Source: an uncultured Candidatus Saccharibacteria bacterium (GTDB lineage Bacteria; Patescibacteriota; Minisyncoccia; Phycocordibacterales; PALSA-1337). From it: 64,000 nucleotides of DNA. Shown one piece after another: positions 3,149 through 24,594 of this stretch. The notes beneath the pieces are model-generated. The model ran no database searches and was not told the origin of the DNA. It was given only the letters and a program-made list of their open reading frames with translations. Each line of letters starts with the position of its first letter. Position 1 is the first letter of the stretch. Location: assembly GCA_964542675.1 (NCBI GenBank), contig CAZIUH010000002.1, forward strand, positions 98 through 64,097. The letters are read 5' to 3'. The position numbers and the translations under genes are program-made.

Positions 3149-3182
3149 AACAAAAATCACCCTTTCGGGCAGATTTTTGTTT

Positions 3183-3547
3183 GTGGAGATGCTGGGAGTC
3201 GAACCCAGGTGCAATCGAAGTTGATCGAACGATTCTACGGCGATAGAAATCTTTGAAGTTTAGAAGCCATGTTATGAAAGAAAACAAAACGCATAGCTTC
3301 GATCTCTAAGTTTCGGATAATACGACGAGAAATCGTACTACCCTACATCCAGGTAATAACGCCTATCCAGAAGGTCAGGATCCCCCTCTAGTAGACGCGC
3401 GCTTATACAAACGCGAATGCGAAGTCCTTGGCTCCGAAATACGGAGAAACAGAAGATTTAGCAATTAGGTTTTGCATCGGATTTATAAGTCGATACTGCT
3501 TACGCCGCACGAACAATAACATACGATTGTCGATGCCTTTCATCCCC
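3183..3547 (-). ncRNA. ssrA: tmRNA (transfer-messenger RNA)
   Basis: Minus-strand 5' GGGGATG pairs with 3' CATCTCC, including a G3:U70 wobble (alanine identity). T-arm CTGGG-TTCGACT-CCCAG, discriminator A. P2a-like pairing CAATCG/CGATTG. About 365 nt. Candidate tag ORFs end at TAA (...AKDFAFAFV* or ...AKPNC*). smpB lies immediately upstream on the same strand. Confidence 0.7.
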
Positions 3548-15711: not shown

Positions 15712-15808
15712 AAAATTAAAACGCAAAATGACATTGTGATATGTAAAATCGTTCCGTGATGTTATTTTTATTTTTGAATTGTGATTTTTCATTTTGATTT
15801 TTGCATTA
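15712..15808. repeat. second intergenic inverted-repeat family (degenerate), rpsE–rplO spacer
   Basis: AAAATTAAAACGCAAAATGACATTGTGATATG ... TTTTTGAATTGTGATTTTTCATTTTGATTTTTGCATT. Confidence 0.55.
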
Positions 15809-17618: not shown

Positions 17619-18005
17619 TTACCAAATCTTGAATAATATCTCTCCGCCAACCTTCATTTTTTTCGCGTCTGTATCCGTTAATATTCCTTTAGGGGTTGAG
17701 TAGATAACATTACCGTACCCACTTTTGAATGAACGGATATCACGAGCCTTCTGATACATTCGCTTTGACAGTTTTGAGATCCTCTGAACGCCGTGTACGC
17801 GCGGCTCATCGTTAAAATAAACAAGTCCAAGTAACAGTTCCTTATTTTCTTTGTCCTTTTCAACAGATGAGAGATAACCTGCTTTCTTCAAAAGATGCGC
17901 GACGTTCTCTGCAAACTTGGAATCCTGAACAACAACAACGGTCTTACCGGCATCACTGCCGTTTTTGATTCGAATTATTAAATCTGAAATTGGATCTGTT
18001 ACCAT
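17619..18005 (-). CDS. rpsH: 30S ribosomal protein S8
   Basis: MVTDPISDLIIRIKNG... Confidence 0.9.
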   Translation of the reverse strand: MVTDPISDLIIRIKNGSDAGKTVVVVQDSKFAENVAHLLKKAGYLSSVEKDKENKELLLGLVYFNDEPRVHGVQRISKLSKRMYQKARDIRSFKSGYGNVIYSTPKGILTDTDAKKMKVGGEILFKIW

Positions 18006-18131
18006 AAAATTAAAATACGTAAAACATATTGGAAAATAATAAATTAAAATTTAATTATCTGTTACGATTATGTTATTCATTTTTGCATTGTGATTTTGCA
18101 TTTTATTTTTTAATCTTTTGCGTTAAACATA

Positions 18132-18317
18132 TTACCAAGATGATTTCTTAACGCCCGGAATCATGCCTTCATTGGCGAATTCTCGGAAACAAATGCGGCA
18201 AATATCGAAATCACGCATATAGCCATGCTTTCGGCCACAGCGGAAACAACGTCTAACAACGCGTGATTTGAATTTCGGTTTTTTTTTCGATCTAGCTATT
18301 ACCGCTTTTGTCGCCAT
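18132..18317 (-). CDS. rpsZ: 30S ribosomal protein S14 type Z (zinc-binding)
   Basis: 61 aa, [23 protein letters not shown]. Confidence 0.9.
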
Positions 18318-18675
18318 AAATGTTTGTCCTTGAAGCAGAAGCAAAGAAAAGGCGATTGGTTAGCTTCCTCTCCGATTTACATCGGAATAGCTTGCTTCCA
18401 ATCATTACCTCATTCCTTTCACTTATTTCGAGGTAATTCGATACTAGCAGATATACGTAATGAAGTCAACAAAATAGCCTGAGCGGTTGAGCACACCCAG
18501 GCTGAAGCGATTTTGTGGTCCTAGAACACTGAGACTGCCCTGTCTAATCGAATGGATAGTAGTTTTAGATAGAACACTCAACATTATGCACGATTTGGTA
18601 GGAAGACAGAACAAAAAGACCGCTGTAACTCCCATTGTCTAGCTCCGTGAATTATACTCTTATTACAGAAAATAA

Positions 18676-20220
18676 TCAATGGTATGAATATGAAAATTTT
18701 ATTTTTTTCTTTTTATCCTTTTTGATCTTTCTTGCTCGATTCATATTCATGGATTTTTCCTCCGGCGTTGGTTCTGGTCCCAAAAATAAGAAATGTAGCT
18801 TACGAATTTCGTCTTGTGGCATAATGGAAAATTCGGCATTATGATCAGCCGATAATTCCTTAAATTTCCTGTCATATTGAAGTGCTTCTTCATGCACTTG
18901 CAATGCCGTGTTATTCAATCCCAGAAGATGTAGCCCAGTCAAAGACCTGAGTCGAGACAATGCCACATAACCCATTCCTTTCTCGAATGATTGGGACAAA
19001 TCTATGTATGCCGCGTCCAAAGACATGCCTTGGCTTTTATGAATCGTGATCGCCCAAGCAAGACGAAGTGGATATTGTTCTATCTCCGCGAGTAATCTAT
19101 CATCGTCTTCAACGCGCCACTTTTCTTTTTCAACATGAATATTACCTCTAGTCGTACGCACGATAATTGATTCATAACCGCAATTTTCGACAATCCCGAG
19201 CGTGCCATTCACGTAACCTTTCTCATAATTATTCTTGACGAACATGACTCGCGCGCCGTGTTTCAAGCGCAAATTGGCAGGCGCCAAGCAACTTTTTTTC
19301 AAACCTTCAACAATCCGTTTATTGCCATGGCTATCCATTTGATATTCGAATACTCGTCCGCCGAGCTTAGCCAGCTCGCGCTCATTCTCGACATCTACAT
19401 TCAAATTGTGAGAATATAATTTCGTTGGTTCAATCCCAGAATTCGGGATCGCTCCTGAGCCGACGCTCCCCGTAGCGGACTTTAGCAAAGCGGAATGATT
19501 AGTGACCCCCGGAGGGAATGTGCCGGCGATACGAGTGGCTGACGACCGACTCCGAAGCAGATCAATAATATCCTTTGTGACTTTGGCGTCTCTAATAGCG
19601 TTCAAAATAGCCAAATATTGCGGGTCGTTTTGGCGGAATTGTTCTTCAAGATAACAAACTATAAATTGGGTTTCTTTCCAGGCTCTTGAATGATAAGCGA
19701 ACTCTGAACTTCCACTCTTATTATATTCATCACATTCGAAAAGTTGTCCATTATCGTCGCTTGGAGAATATGCAGACGCGCGCGAAATAGGCGGCAATTG
19801 AAAAAAATCTCCACAGACTATTATTTGTAAACCACCGAATGGTAAATGTGAATTGCGTACACGTTTCAAAACCCGATTTATCATATCCAATCGGTAATGA
19901 TGCAACATTGAAACTTCATCGATAATCAATACTCTTGCCGCCATTATTCTTTTTGCGGTATTCTCTTTTCCGGCAATTTCATCAATATCATATTCACTAA
20001 GCTTATCCTTTACCCCTATTCCCGCCCAGGAATGTATAGTTATGCCACCCATATGCGTTGCCGCTATACCTGTGGATGCCGTCACGCCAACAGGTATTCC
20101 GCGTTCACACAAGCAGGTCAAATATTCCCGCAAAACATGTGTCTTTCCGCTTCCGGCCGCGCCAGTTAGAAATACATTCGCCCCGGTTTTCAGAATCTTG
20201 AGAGCTTCAACTTGAGTCAT
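18676..20220 (-). CDS. PIF1/RecD-like ATP-dependent DNA helicase (AAA_30/Pif1 family)
   Basis: Walker A GAAGSGKTHVL, LIIDEVSM Walker B, QLPP, C-terminal SH3-like/HTH region, Lys-rich tail. Inserted between rplE and rpsZ. Confidence 0.8.
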   Translation of the reverse strand: MTQVEALKILKTGANVFLTGAAGSGKTHVLREYLTCLCERGIPVGVTASTGIAATHMGGITIHSWAGIGVKDKLSEYDIDEIAGKENTAKRIMAARVLIIDEVSMLHHYRLDMINRVLKRVRNSHLPFGGLQIIVCGDFFQLPPISRASAYSPSDDNGQLFECDEYNKSGSSEFAYHSRAWKETQFIVCYLEEQFRQNDPQYLAILNAIRDAKVTKDIIDLLRSRSSATRIAGTFPPGVTNHSALLKSATGSVGSGAIPNSGIEPTKLYSHNLNVDVENERELAKLGGRVFEYQMDSHGNKRIVEGLKKSCLAPANLRLKHGARVMFVKNNYEKGYVNGTLGIVENCGYESIIVRTTRGNIHVEKEKWRVEDDDRLLAEIEQYPLRLAWAITIHKSQGMSLDAAYIDLSQSFEKGMGYVALSRLRSLTGLHLLGLNNTALQVHEEALQYDRKFKELSADHNAEFSIMPQDEIRKLHFLFLGPEPTPEEKSMNMNRARKIKKDKKKKIKFSYSYH

Positions 20221-20322
20221 GGAAACATTATAGAGGAATATTCAAAAAAGACACATTGATGGGTTCGGTAAAACATGTTGATAAACAAAAACACGGATTG
20301 ATTCGTATTTTTTTATAATTTA

Positions 20323-20874
20323 TTATTTCTTCCCCTCCCTCTTTATCGGGAATCCCAAATGTTCCAGAAATGCCAGCGTGGAATTCTTGTCATGTGAGGT
20401 TGTAACGATGGTGATCGCCATGCCAAAAACGTCTTTCAAATCTTCATCGGAAGTTTCGGCAAAAATAGTATGTTCCTTGACGCCAATAGTGAAATTGCCC
20501 ATATCGTCTACAGCCGTGCGATTTAACCCGCGAAAATCCTTCGTGCGAGGAAGAGCGATATGGATCAAACGGTCAAGAAATTCACACATGCGCTTGCCAC
20601 GAAGAGTGACTTGATATCCGACAGGGTCGCCGATACGAGTCTTGAATGTGGCAATAGCTTTTTTTGTCGCTCTTATCGCGGGTTTTTGTCCGGTAATTCT
20701 GGCAAGACGCTCGGCAATGAGTTCAATTTTCTTTTTATCCTTCACGGATCCGAAACCATTGGAAACAACCACCTTTGTAAGCCGGGGCACCTGCATAGCA
20801 TTCGTAAGTCCCAGCTTCTCTTTCAAGGCTTTGAATGACTCTTTATTAAGTTCATAAATGGATTTGTATTTCAT
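20323..20874 (-). CDS. rplE: 50S ribosomal protein L5
   Basis: MKYKSIYELNKESFKALKEKLGLTNAMQVPRLTKVVVSNGFG. Confidence 0.9.
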   Translation of the reverse strand: MKYKSIYELNKESFKALKEKLGLTNAMQVPRLTKVVVSNGFGSVKDKKKIELIAERLARITGQKPAIRATKKAIATFKTRIGDPVGYQVTLRGKRMCEFLDRLIHIALPRTKDFRGLNRTAVDDMGNFTIGVKEHTIFAETSDEDLKDVFGMAITIVTTSHDKNSTLAFLEHLGFPIKREGKK

Positions 20875-21967: not shown

Positions 21968-22174
21968 TTATTTATCTTCCGTATTCATCGCGTTTACCGC
22001 TGTCATTATCCTGGCAATATCTTTTTTTACCGCTTTACCCTCCTTTACGTTCTTGGTCTTCGCCCCCGCTCCGCCGAAGCAAAATACGCGCAAAATTTCC
22101 CGTTTTTCACCGAGCATTTTGGCAAGATCTGCGTGCGTCTTATTCTTTATGTTCTTCATTTTTATTGCTTTCAT
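21968..22174 (-). CDS. rpmC: 50S ribosomal protein L29
   Basis: MKAIKMKNIKNKTHADLAKMLGEKREILRV... Start taken at the internal Met; the upstream ORF extension overlaps a hairpin. Confidence 0.75.
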   Translation of the reverse strand: MKAIKMKNIKNKTHADLAKMLGEKREILRVFCFGGAGAKTKNVKEGKAVKKDIARIMTAVNAMNTEDK

Positions 22175-22282
22175 GATATAAAAAAGCTCATCCGAGCTAT
22201 GAAAAGATATTATCAAGTAAGTTTAATCAAGTCAATAGAAGTCAATAGAAGTTGTTATTTGTACTCATGGTATAATGAGCGT

Positions 22283-23476
22283 ATGAAGACTATGCCACCA
22301 TTGATATATAGTTCACAGACTCAAATAAATCTGTTCTCAACAGATCCAGTTGAGACTTTGAACCTAAAAAATCCGTATTTTAGTTCTCATCTAATTACTT
22401 ACATCGGAAACAAGCGACGCTTGCTTCCTTTTCTCCACAAAAGTTTTTTGAAAGTTCGTGAGAAAATCGGCACACGTAAACTTGTCATTCTTGATGGATT
22501 CGTTGGAAGTGGTGCCACGGCACGATTACTGAAATCCTTCGCAAGTGAGCTTCATGTGAATGATCTAGAAGACTACTCTGAAACCATAAATCGCGCTTAT
22601 CTTGCTAATAGAACAAAGATTAATCTAGATGAACTCGAGAAAAATATAAACTGGTTAAACAAAAATAAATTACCAATAAATAACACATACAAACCTGGGT
22701 TTATCGAGAGAAATTATGCGCCAAAAGATGATAAAAACATTATGCCTGGAGAAAGAGTCTTTTATACAAGAAATAATGCACGGATAATTGATTATGTTCG
22801 TCAACTGATTGAGGAAAAAATCCCAACAGAATATAAACATCTCTGTCTCGCTTCATTATTGGTGAAAGCATCTGTAAATACAAATACGTCTGGAGTTTTT
22901 AAAGGTTTTCATAAAAAAGATGGTAATGGGCATTTTGGAGGACATAGTGAAAATGCGTTGTCACGGATTAAGAGAGAAATAACGCTCGACACGCCAATAT
23001 TCTCTGAGTTTGAATGCCCTGTAACCGTTCATAAACGAGACATAAATGAACTAATAACGGACAGCAAGCTACCAATATTTGATTTGGTTTATTATGATCC
23101 CCCATATAATCAACATCCTTATGGATCAAACTATTTCATGTTAAACCTAATCAATAGTGGAAAAGAGTGTGAGATTCAAGATGGAGTTAGTGGCATAATA
23201 AAACATTGGAATAAATCAGCATATAATAAAAAAAATGATGCTGAGGATGCTATGGAAAGATTATTACGGGATACACGCGCAAGATTTGTTGTAATTTCAT
23301 ACAATGATGAAGGTATAATACCTGTGAGTAATTTCAGAAATATATTGTCAAAATATGGAAAGATTGAATTAATGGAACAAGAATATAACACCTATCGAGG
23401 TTCAAGAAATTTAAATAATAGAAATATAAAAGTTAAAGAACTTCTCTGGATATTAGAGAAAACAAATGCTAACTAA
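22283..23476 (+). CDS. site-specific DNA N6-adenine methyltransferase (D12/Dam-like, alpha class)
   Basis: FxGxG-type motif I (LDGFVGSGA) and DPPY catalytic motif (VYYDPPYNQ). TATAAT 8 nt upstream of the chosen ATG. Convergent with, and overlapping, the EcoRI-like restriction endonuclease gene. Confidence 0.75.
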   Translation: MKTMPPLIYSSQTQINLFSTDPVETLNLKNPYFSSHLITYIGNKRRLLPFLHKSFLKVREKIGTRKLVILDGFVGSGATARLLKSFASELHVNDLEDYSETINRAYLANRTKINLDELEKNINWLNKNKLPINNTYKPGFIERNYAPKDDKNIMPGERVFYTRNNARIIDYVRQLIEEKIPTEYKHLCLASLLVKASVNTNTSGVFKGFHKKDGNGHFGGHSENALSRIKREITLDTPIFSEFECPVTVHKRDINELITDSKLPIFDLVYYDPPYNQHPYGSNYFMLNLINSGKECEIQDGVSGIIKHWNKSAYNKKNDAEDAMERLLRDTRARFVVISYNDEGIIPVSNFRNILSKYGKIELMEQEYNTYRGSRNLNNRNIKVKELLWILEKTNAN

Positions 23477-24086
23477 TCGGAAAATAATGTTTGATTGCCA
23501 TTTCCGCCACATCAGTAATAATATTCAGCATTTCATTAATTTTCCAATCTTTATGCCGGAAAAACATGGAAACTGGTTCAAACGGTAAATTATTTTTTTG
23601 TATAAAAAGCTTTTTCAGAGGGAAAAAATCATTCATTGTCACAACTCGATCACGAATTGTTGATTCATCCTTGAAATCATCACCACTTCCAAAACATACA
23701 AAAGGAATGACTTCCTCTTTTTTGAAGATTGCTCGAATCCCAATCAGATTTTTTCCGAGCCGTTCAACGGCATTTCCTCTTGCTTGTTTTGGTAATCCTT
23801 CATCTTTTCGTTTATCATTAGTCCCTTGCCTTTTTACTTCAGCAATAAGAATAAGCCTCCGACTTCCATTTTTGTCAGTAGCATAGAGAAACCCTCCATC
23901 TGGTTTAATATAACTCCTTTTCAAGACCTGAGAAAACTCCTGGGAATATTCTGGATATTCCAGACGTAAGTCATTGATTATTGTTGAAAGTAATAATTGT
24001 TTTTTATGTTCAAAAATCAGTTGTGGATATTTTTCACCTAAACGCTTCATAATTTTTTTAACAACTATCATAATGTCACTATCCAT
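23469..24086 (-). CDS. Type II restriction endonuclease, EcoRI/RsrI/MunI family
   Basis: KPDGG...LILIAEVKRQG (PD-ExK) and ARGNAVERLGKN closely parallel EcoRI KPDGG...LVAEAKHQG...AAGNAIERSHKN. Confidence 0.75.
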   Translation of the reverse strand: MDSDIMIVVKKIMKRLGEKYPQLIFEHKKQLLLSTIINDLRLEYPEYSQEFSQVLKRSYIKPDGGFLYATDKNGSRRLILIAEVKRQGTNDKRKDEGLPKQARGNAVERLGKNLIGIRAIFKKEEVIPFVCFGSGDDFKDESTIRDRVVTMNDFFPLKKLFIQKNNLPFEPVSMFFRHKDWKINEMLNIITDVAEMAIKHYFPIS

Positions 24087-24168: not shown

Positions 24169-24594
24169 TTACATTCTAGCAACTATCCTTGTCTTTAGTG
24201 GCAACTTTGTTCCCGCTTTGCGGAGCGCTTCTTCGGCAATTTTGGGCTCAACACCGTCAATTTCAAAAACGATTCTACCCGGTTTGACCTCGGCGATGAA
24301 ACCAACGATGTCGCCTTTACCTTTACCCATTTTCACTTCGGCTGGTTTCTGAGTATACGGATGATCTGGAAAAACGCGAATCCAGACTTTACCTGTTTTC
24401 CCCGCCTTGTGCATAGCCGCCTTGCGCGCCGCTTCGATCTGATTTGACGTCACACGAGCGTATTCGAGTGCCTTCAAACCAAATGAACCAAAAGCAATGC
24501 TAATACCGCGAGTATCGGCATGAATAGCCTCCTTCAAAGGATTTTGTCTCATTGTGAACCATTTGCGATGCTTTACTTTTTTGGGAATTAACAT
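24169..24594 (-). CDS. rplP: 50S ribosomal protein L16
   Basis: MLIPKKVKHRKWF... Confidence 0.92.
   Translation of the reverse strand: MLIPKKVKHRKWFTMRQNPLKEAIHADTRGISIAFGSFGLKALEYARVTSNQIEAARKAAMHKAGKTGKVWIRVFPDHPYTQKPAEVKMGKGKGDIVGFIAEVKPGRIVFEIDGVEPKIAEEALRKAGTKLPLKTRIVARM

Follow-up and report, generated by a model that had tools for sequence, protein, structure and literature searches.

The S10-spc-alpha cluster of ribosomal protein genes is the textbook example of a gene order that stays frozen, and the proteins it encodes serve as the standard markers by which uncultured bacteria are placed. Described insertions into this cluster lie mostly between its operons, each representing a single event. 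Within the Escherichia coli spc operon, the ribosomal protein S8 represses expression at the start of rplE, where it binds mRNA that mimics 16S helix 21, and the genes from rpsN to rplO are translationally coupled to rplE; this S8/spc element is confined to Gammaproteobacteria (PMC3616713). The core of the S8 site is formed by A595, A596 and G597 opposite U641, A642, C643 and U644, with a bulge at 641-642 (PMC4176348). The locus analysed here is part of a 64,000-nucleotide (nt) stretch, referred to as the window, of contig CAZIUH010000002.1 (assembly GCA_964542675.1), and belongs to an uncultured member of the Patescibacteria. A gene for a Pif1-family DNA helicase (pif1) and a non-coding spacer separate rplE from rpsZ, in the middle of the spc cluster. 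The noteworthy results are a hypervariable break in this cluster and a new candidate ribosomal leader RNA in front of rpsZ, rather than the helicase. A literature search returned no account of Pif1 in Patescibacteria, and no described break of the spc operon in the candidate phyla radiation (CPR).

The rplE-rpsZ junction

On the minus strand of the window, the ribosomal genes followed the order rpsC, rplP, (insert), rpmC, rpsQ, rplN, rplX, rplE, (pif1), rpsZ, rpsH, rplF, rplR, rpsE, rplO and secY, with rpsZ opening a downstream unit (rpsZ-rpsH-rplF-rplR-rpsE-rplO-secY). For comparison, 80 loci from GTDB species representatives were recovered with uL5 (rplE) as query. All were Patescibacteria, labelled Paceibacteria, Parcubacteria, Taylorbacteria or Nomurabacteria, and a wider set of 162 related loci was used for homology searches. 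The L5-S14 junction exceeded 150 nt in all 52 loci possessing both genes (>500 nt in 43 and >1 kb in 35), with lengths ranging from 155 nt to 5.6 kb, while 20 further loci had no S14 gene within the 1.5-6 kb of sequence left after L5. The S3-L16, L29-S17, S17-L14, L14-L24, L24-L5, S14-S8, S8-L6 and L6-L18 junctions had medians of 2-41 nt, and none exceeded 150 nt. Measurements of the S5 and L15 junctions were unreliable, the queries being truncated or weak.

The smallest rplE-rpsZ gaps (~155-250 nt) held just a terminator, a promoter and the leader, and 44 of 79 relatives had a hairpin followed by a T-run no more than 150 nt beyond rplE. Taken together, the open L5-S14 junctions, the minimal gaps and the hairpins after rplE indicate that the spc cluster is split at this point across the sampled clade. 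A check of orthologous junctions for emptiness, suggested with the first-pass annotation of this DNA, showed all 52 measured junctions to be open, with varied cargo across the clade.

A total of 223 open reading frames (ORFs) were called in the gaps, forming many small families and 100-odd singletons. Based on Pfam matches, the cargo included RecA, SSB, pyruvate kinase, thymidylate synthase (ThyA), FolD, TatD, RadC, MsrB, dCTP deaminase and transporters, as well as a PemK-like protein; only two rve transposases were found among the 114 cargo families. Rather than a defence island, the gap is a site of gene turnover in general.

A three-gene module recurred in the gap of 10-16 species of another sub-clade (L007, L016, L021, L023, L026, L042, L044-L046, L050, L055, L058 and others). 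It comprised an extracytoplasmic function (ECF)-type sigma factor (Sigma70_r2/r4), a ~370-aa protein always found after it, as a putative anti-sigma factor, and, in divergent orientation, a surface protein of ~430 aa whose Fn3-like repeats were assigned by eye.

A second, rarer variable site was observed between L16 and L29 (rplP-rpmC), where the junction exceeded 150 nt in 5 of 72 relatives and measured 4-114 nt in the others. These five loci (L022, L039, L043, L060 and L063) carried 1-2.2 kb of unrelated cargo, including, as assigned by eye, membrane proteins and nucleotidyltransferase-like and DUF3800-like ORFs. In the window, this site was interrupted at 22133-24086, between rplP (24169-24594) and rpmC (~21968-22165), by a type II restriction-modification (R-M) pair. 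It comprised a D12-class N6-adenine methyltransferase (22133-23476, plus strand; PADLOC MTase_II, 9e-105) and an EcoRI-like endonuclease (23469-24086, minus strand; Pfam EcoRI, 4e-16). The pair had no homologues in the 162 related loci, and its low GC content (0.33) and GC content at third codon positions (GC3; 0.26), compared to 0.42 for the window, mark it as really foreign.

The interval between rplE and rpsZ in the window contained the following features:

20323-20874, minus strand: rplE (uL5), an ORF that closes the upstream ribosomal unit and forms the left edge of the variable gap
20221-20322, minus strand: rplE-pif1 intergenic region, AT-rich (GC 0.275), with the predicted pif1 promoter
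18676-20220, minus strand: pif1, a complete ORF encoding a 514-aa Pif1-family superfamily 1B (SF1B) DNA helicase
18504-18675, minus strand: 5' part of the spacer, ~170 nt, read most simply as the 3' untranslated region (3'UTR) of pif1
18466-18503, minus strand: terminator-like hairpin (itself 18476-18503) and T-run
18441-18469, minus strand: predicted rpsZ promoter, with the -35 box at 18464-18469 and the extended -10 box at 18441-18449
18405-18436, minus strand: leader hairpin P1 (UUACCUC...GAGGUAA), located where the rpsZ mRNA is predicted to have its 5' end
18354-18403, minus strand: leader element P2, the invariant core of the rpsZ leader
18318-18353, minus strand: U-rich tract (18341-18353) and Shine-Dalgarno-like AAGGA (18327-18331), between P2 and the rpsZ start codon
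18132-18317, minus strand: rpsZ (uS14, zinc-ribbon type; Pfam Ribosomal_S14, 2.8e-22), the right edge of the gap

The mechanically called rpsZ ORF used a TTG at 18344, inside the U-rich tract of the leader. The alignment with homologues begins at the ATG of position 18317 (MATKAV...), ahead of which lies AAGGA. Judged from this alignment, the ATG is most likely the true start, and the spacer between pif1 and rpsZ would then span 18318-18675 (358 nt). The spacer had initially been described as 330 nt of non-coding DNA (18345-18675) without known function. Its non-coding nature held and its limits did not; ~170 nt of it are most simply the 3'UTR of pif1, and its 3' third consists of a lineage-wide promoter and a structured leader.

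The rpsZ promoter and leader RNA

In nhmmer searches, conservation was restricted to the final ~130 nt of the spacer, always directly upstream of rpsZ. The last ~160 nt were made up of a terminator-like hairpin, a promoter and the conserved leader RNA. The hairpin had 10 pairs (6 of them G-C) and a loop of 8, followed by ATTTTGTTGA, and the same order of terminator, promoter and leader was found in minimal-gap relatives, among them L070, L053, L047 and L079. The rpsZ promoter possessed a -35 box TTGACT, a 17-nt spacer and the extended -10 box TGCTAGTAT. A TGnTAnn[AC]T motif was present upstream of P2, at a constant distance (median 40 nt), in 47 of 53 relatives, with TTGAC further upstream in 35 of these 47, and positions T17, G18, T20, A21 and T25 of this region were invariant in a 55-sequence alignment. 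An extended -10 of the form TGCTAnnAT (TGCTAGTAT, TGCTATACT, TGCTATAAT) was common to the predicted promoters of pif1 and rpsZ, both in the window and in ~70 loci.

The leader, ~125 nt long, consisted of the hairpin P1 and the internal-loop element P2. In the window and all 58 relatives compared, it was flanked by the conserved extended -10 on one side and the ATG of rpsZ on the other, the promoter being assigned by consensus and conservation. In the window, P1 folded with -7.2 kcal/mol (z-score -4.2). A P1-like hairpin was present in most relatives (z < -1 in 32 of 47), with ACCUU/AAGGU alternating with ACCUC/GAGG. P2 had the form GAUUGG-A-AGC, 3 nt, a variable hairpin, 3 nt, and GCU-AA-CCAAUC. 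A two-arm regular expression for P2 matched all 58 rpsZ-upstream regions, with 9-47 nt between the invariant arms, and this variation in spacing argues for an RNA and against a DNA operator. The RNAalifold consensus combined an outer helix of 6 bp with an A left unpaired opposite AA and a 3-bp AGC/GCU helix; a second, A-rich 3x3 loop was also present. Altogether, 21 nucleotides around the two small internal loops were invariant. Among 55 distinct sequences, the inner segment varied widely in sequence and length, and still formed a hairpin in 54 (z < -1 in 52). Downstream of P2, the distance to the ATG varied from 8 to 70 nt in relatives, and the TT at alignment positions 117-118 was invariant.

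Among 16 P2 sequences of equal length, 92% of cells paired, compared to 13-47% with the partners slid. Double changes were found in four pairs, three of them in the hairpin, and included a C-G to U-A change in P2b; the covariation score of these sequences was reached by none of 500 shuffles. In addition, the six U-G wobbles of the outer helix work only on the sense strand. The covariance model R1 built for the element gave exactly one match per rpsZ-bearing locus (38-71 bits), including the window (56.2 bits, E 1.7e-13, 18342-18407), and nothing above 23 bits elsewhere in 1.64 Mb. The leader had no match in Rfam 15 (E<=10), and its core had none in the viral_contigs scan. It appears to be previously undescribed and so far confined to this Paceibacteria clade.

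The 5' part of the spacer (18504-18675) is probably the pif1 3'UTR. It had no homologue in the 162 loci, including those with a 70-73% identical Pif1, and no protein similarity was detected in the spacer, whose 63-aa ORF had no Pfam match. A decayed HTH_40 domain or gene remnant was also considered and rejected, as only weak reverse-strand matches (E 2-7) with an internal stop were obtained. A covariance-model search of the spacer had been proposed with the first-pass annotation, and no known RNA family accounted for the spacer: at E<=10, Rfam gave only a chance snoRNA match, within the helicase ORF, for the region 17900-20500.

The rpsZ leader is most likely an autoregulatory leader that binds a ribosomal protein, a function that is still putative, with S8 as the best guess among candidate ligands. 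As rplE is uncoupled from the genes that follow it, a site ahead of rpsZ would be required for the downstream unit to be under feedback control. Identity with an E. coli-type S8/spc operator was rejected, since the AAG/CUAA core, the 1x2 loop and the location before rpsZ do not fit. As to mimicry of ribosomal RNA (rRNA), comparison with the E. coli rRNA operon (16S, 23S and 5S) gave scattered partial matches only (23S GAC loop region, H101), which do not pair mutually and were discounted, and the resemblance to the S8 site was partial and compositional. No rRNA gene of the lineage, sought for a comparison of helix 21 with the leader, was present in the window or the 162 loci. On inspection, none of the consensus sequences of kink-turns, loop-E/sarcin-ricin motifs and attC sites fitted the P2 loops.

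Three other explanations were weighed for the spacer and its leader. The region 18504-18675 could encode an independent small RNA, running from a promoter-like site at 18679..18651, which overlaps the pif1 stop codon, to the terminator at 18476-18503; the site matches 10 of 12 promoter positions (TTGATT-17-TATAAT) and, with a good terminator, brackets ~170 nt. This is improbable, however, given the lack of conservation in any relative, even at the loci with a 70-73% identical Pif1, and the lack of the TG-extended -10 typical of the conserved promoters of the lineage. Promoter-like sites were not enriched in the spacer (12 compared to 7.7 ± 3.4 in shuffles), the fold of the whole spacer was unremarkable (z-score -1.6), and there was no Rfam match. 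Still less credible, and close to excluded, is the reading of GATTGG...CCAATC as a DNA-level recombination or attachment site (integron attC-like or att) that would be the source of the cargo turnover. The element does border a hypervariable region and is an imperfect inverted repeat with a variable centre, and its GCTAAC loosely resembles the R'' core of the attC consensus. However, each locus has just one copy, located in every case at the rpsZ end of the gap and absent from the boundaries between cargo genes. The copy falls within the transcript, after the conserved promoter, and its wobbles fit one strand. Moreover, no integron integrase was found among the cargo, and transposases accounted for only two of 114 families. 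Unlikely, though deserving more weight than either of these, is a structural mRNA element (for example one that stabilises the 5' end, is a site of processing, or acts constitutively as an attenuator or standby site) or a sensor of a small molecule or ion. Like hairpins that stabilise mRNA, P1 is placed at the extreme 5' end. P2 is followed by a U-rich tract, rRNA mimicry could not be shown, and the S14 encoded by rpsZ is of the zinc-ribbon type. On the other hand, 21 invariant nucleotides beside a freely varying hairpin are the usual signature of a specific ligand site rather than of a generic stabiliser, and the U-tract begins 3-5 nt past the helix, which makes a poor intrinsic terminator. 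P2 is also too small and simple for most riboswitch aptamers, and it lies where operon-specific feedback by a ribosomal protein is expected.

The pif1 helicase gene

The first-pass annotation had recognised a complete Pif1/SF1B helicase lying co-directionally between rplE and rpsZ, which the ORF, Pfam and structure matches confirmed. The 514-aa protein matched Pfam PIF1 (2.5e-34) as well as Pif1_2B_dom, AAA_30 and AAA_19, with the SH3-like 2B domain at residues 306-344 (Pif1_2B_dom, 6.5e-08). Solved Pif1 structures were matched at 3e-67 to 5e-53 (7otj at 3e-67; yeast 5o6b; human 6hph; Bacteroides 5fhd). All superfamily 1 (SF1) motifs I, Ia, II, III, IV, V and VI were present and aligned with 7otj (GAAGSGKT, VTASTGIAA, LIIDEVSM, GDFFQLPP, EEQFRQ, TIHKSQG and YVALSR, respectively), as did LDMINRVLKRVRNSHLPFGGLQIIVCGDFFQLPPI, the signature motif of Pif1 located between motifs II and III. 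The features by which the helicase had originally been recognised (GAAGSGKTH, LIIDEVSM, QLPP within GDFFQLPPI, an SH3-like region and a Lys-rich tail) were thus all recovered.

Homologues formed more than 8000 clusters at 90% identity (E < 1e-10), and the named ones all belonged to Patescibacteria. Most patescibacterial orthologues (~545 aa) ended in a C-terminal HTH_40 domain. The window protein and its closest relatives (P0002, P0003) did not possess it and carried instead a short Lys-rich tail (...KKDKKKKIKFSYSYH; C-terminus encoded at 18676-18830). The absence of HTH_40 is, on protein comparison, a clade-specific domain loss, and the shared tail is evidence that pif1 is a maintained gene. 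The helicase itself is ordinary, a new member of a known family. Its gene occupies an unusual position, though one typical of the lineage.

A TATAAT -10 box was located at 20227-20232 and no Shine-Dalgarno sequence was present. This box had been noted before at 8 nt from the ATG; its presence was verified, and its distance corrected to 6 nt. In nearly all of ~24 Pif1 orthologues, whether linked to rplE or not, a TATAAT, TATACT or TAnAAT box lay 6-7 nt ahead of the ATG, often preceded by TGC (extended -10) and again without a Shine-Dalgarno sequence, and several relatives had a terminator hairpin just upstream of pif1. With the conserved -10 box so close to the ATG, pif1 is predicted to have a promoter of its own and a leaderless mRNA, and leaderless mRNAs may be in use in this lineage.

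A co-directional Pif1 orthologue (45-73% identity) occupied the rplE-rpsZ gap in 12 of the 80 GTDB species, and Pif1 was also found in this gap on the contigs of P0002 (71% identical) and P0021 (57%) and on four metagenome contigs (L084, L085, L087, L161). Orthologues at or below 56% identity with enough flanking sequence lay away from ribosomal genes, among housekeeping genes. On ribosomal-protein trees, the presence of Pif1 in the gap required 4-6 Fitch steps, compared to 12.1 (minimum 8) in 2000 permutations, and these few steps indicate mostly vertical inheritance. This parsimony and permutation test replaced a test for a single clade. A phylogeny of the helicase had been called for at the outset; the top homologues were patescibacterial and the trait was clustered, with conservation in the gap reaching a sub-lineage and not the whole clade.

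In the first-pass annotation, the gene had been viewed as a one-off insertion into the operon, possibly related to defence islands. Recent acquisition of a mobile or anti-phage gene by an otherwise intact spc operon would account for the break in an operon that is normally contiguous. Defence systems do include stand-alone SF1B helicases, and the foreign R-M pair was inserted 2 kb away in the same cluster. PADLOC also returned matches to its RecD_like and PDC-S68 models. These were, however, partial ATPase-domain matches (residues ~3-150, to models of 700-1270 positions) with none full-length, and no defence partner genes lay next to pif1, its neighbours being rplE and rpsZ. Base composition was host-like (GC 0.427 and GC3 0.394, for a window GC of 0.424), in contrast with the R-M genes, and no flanking integrase, transposase, other mobility genes or repeats were found around pif1. 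Orthologues at 45-73% identity occupied the same gap in 13 related genomes, with a phylogenetically clustered distribution, distant ones sat among housekeeping genes, and the junction was open in every relative measured, whatever the cargo. The acquired or defence-gene reading is therefore largely refuted and can be given very little credence: rather than inserted recently or for defence, pif1 is resident at a break of the spc operon that is found lineage-wide.

Elsewhere in the window, the rpmD (L30) gene was not present between rpsE and rplO, whose ORFs are only ~70 nt apart (15734-15806). The absence of L30 is a reported trait of many CPR bacteria. With mechanically called start codons, the rpsE (268 aa) and rplO (215 aa) ORFs were longer than usual, owing to Lys/Glu-rich extensions. 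A transfer-messenger RNA gene (3181-3547, minus strand; Rfam, 97 bits; ARAGORN tag peptide AKSSVSPYFGAKDFAFAFV) was the only Rfam family above its gathering score in the whole window, and no tRNA gene was found in the 64 kb.

Proposed model and comparison with described systems

A split spc operon, a resident Pif1 and a conserved rpsZ promoter with a regulatory leader together form the joint explanation that we consider probable. In this Paceibacteria lineage, the spc cluster is cut into two transcription units between rplE and rpsZ, and the interval tolerates extra genes, with a content that turns over fast between species. In the window, it holds one resident housekeeping-type gene, encoding a 5'-3' DNA helicase of the Pif1 family, which is predicted to be transcribed from its own promoter as a leaderless mRNA and ended by the hairpin terminator. 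Directly past this terminator, the conserved rpsZ promoter would produce an mRNA with the ~125-nt structured 5' leader. The leader most likely binds a ribosomal protein encoded downstream, with S8 as the leading candidate, and this binding would feed back on the translation or transcription of rpsZ-rpsH-rplF and later genes. Such a leader would take the place of the E. coli system, where the start of rplE is the site of S8 action and the downstream genes are translationally coupled to rplE.

Several observations weigh against this explanation. On the RNA side, the P2 outer helix is invariant, so its pairing is uncorroborated by covariation, and P2 matches nothing in the E. coli rRNA operon. 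Compared to the S8 site, its 3'-strand loop reads CUAA and not UACU, and its two extra purines face an unpaired A (1x2 loop) instead of forming the 641/642 bulge two pairs away. On the transcription side, the promoters, the terminator and the leaderless start are assigned from consensus, and no terminator was detectable after rplE in the window, so pif1 may also be transcribed by read-through from the ribosomal promoter. Concerning the history of pif1, the gap-resident genes formed two clades of the Pif1 tree with non-linked ones in between, and a single clade holding all Pif1-linked genomes was recovered in one neighbour-joining tree, with a bootstrap of only 2-10/200. One old placement followed by losses and two placements appear equally compatible with these trees, since the deep species topology is poorly supported and there are two Pif1 clades.

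A more far-reaching version remains doubtful. In it, the gap would be a permanent, clade-wide cargo bay with a high rate of gene gain, loss and swap, and the leader a new Patescibacteria-specific ribosomal-protein-binding RNA (a re-invented S8 operator or another one), whose 21 invariant nucleotides might serve, with the flanking genes, as homology anchors for cargo exchange.

A hypervariable break present across a clade shows where the constraint on gene order can be lifted: after the two halves have been uncoupled by a terminator, a promoter and a new leader. The rplE-rpsZ gap is also a natural and easily located site for studying gene turnover in Patescibacteria. To our knowledge, no feedback regulation by ribosomal proteins is known in this phylum, for which the rpsZ leader, a compact motif with strong statistical support and without an Rfam counterpart, is a candidate.

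Compared to yeast Pif1 and Rrm3, human PIF1, Bacteroides BaPif1 and Thermus oshimai Pif1, the window protein shares the full helicase core, the signature motif and the 2B domain. It differs in belonging to a very large Patescibacteria-specific branch, in having HTH_40 swapped for the Lys-rich tail, and in its apparently leaderless expression.

Like the E. coli S8 operator, the rpsZ leader is a structured RNA that would act in cis; it belongs to the spc cluster and precedes the unit encoding S8. P2 is likewise a helix with a small asymmetric internal loop, seven invariant nucleotides and 5'-AAG-3' on its 5' strand, and resembles the S8 site in composition and in the pairing of C-U with G and A (PMC4176348). 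In contrast, the leader precedes rpsZ and not rplE, and P2 has the second, A-rich 3x3 loop and no Rfam match. With the L10, L20 and S15 leaders and the 20 candidates of Eckert & Weinberg (2020), it shares a location in the 5'UTR of a ribosomal-protein operon, near the start codon, and a clade-conserved structure supported by covariation. Unlike them, it belongs to no described family, and no S14/rpsN leader is included in PMC7247131.

As in the described breaks of the ribosomal gene cluster, the rplE-rpsZ junction tolerates extra genes and synteny relaxes once it is broken; rpsN is itself a known site of replacement by recombination. The present break differs in lying inside the spc operon, in being universal in the sampled clade with its own terminator, promoter and leader, and in carrying a different cargo in almost every species.

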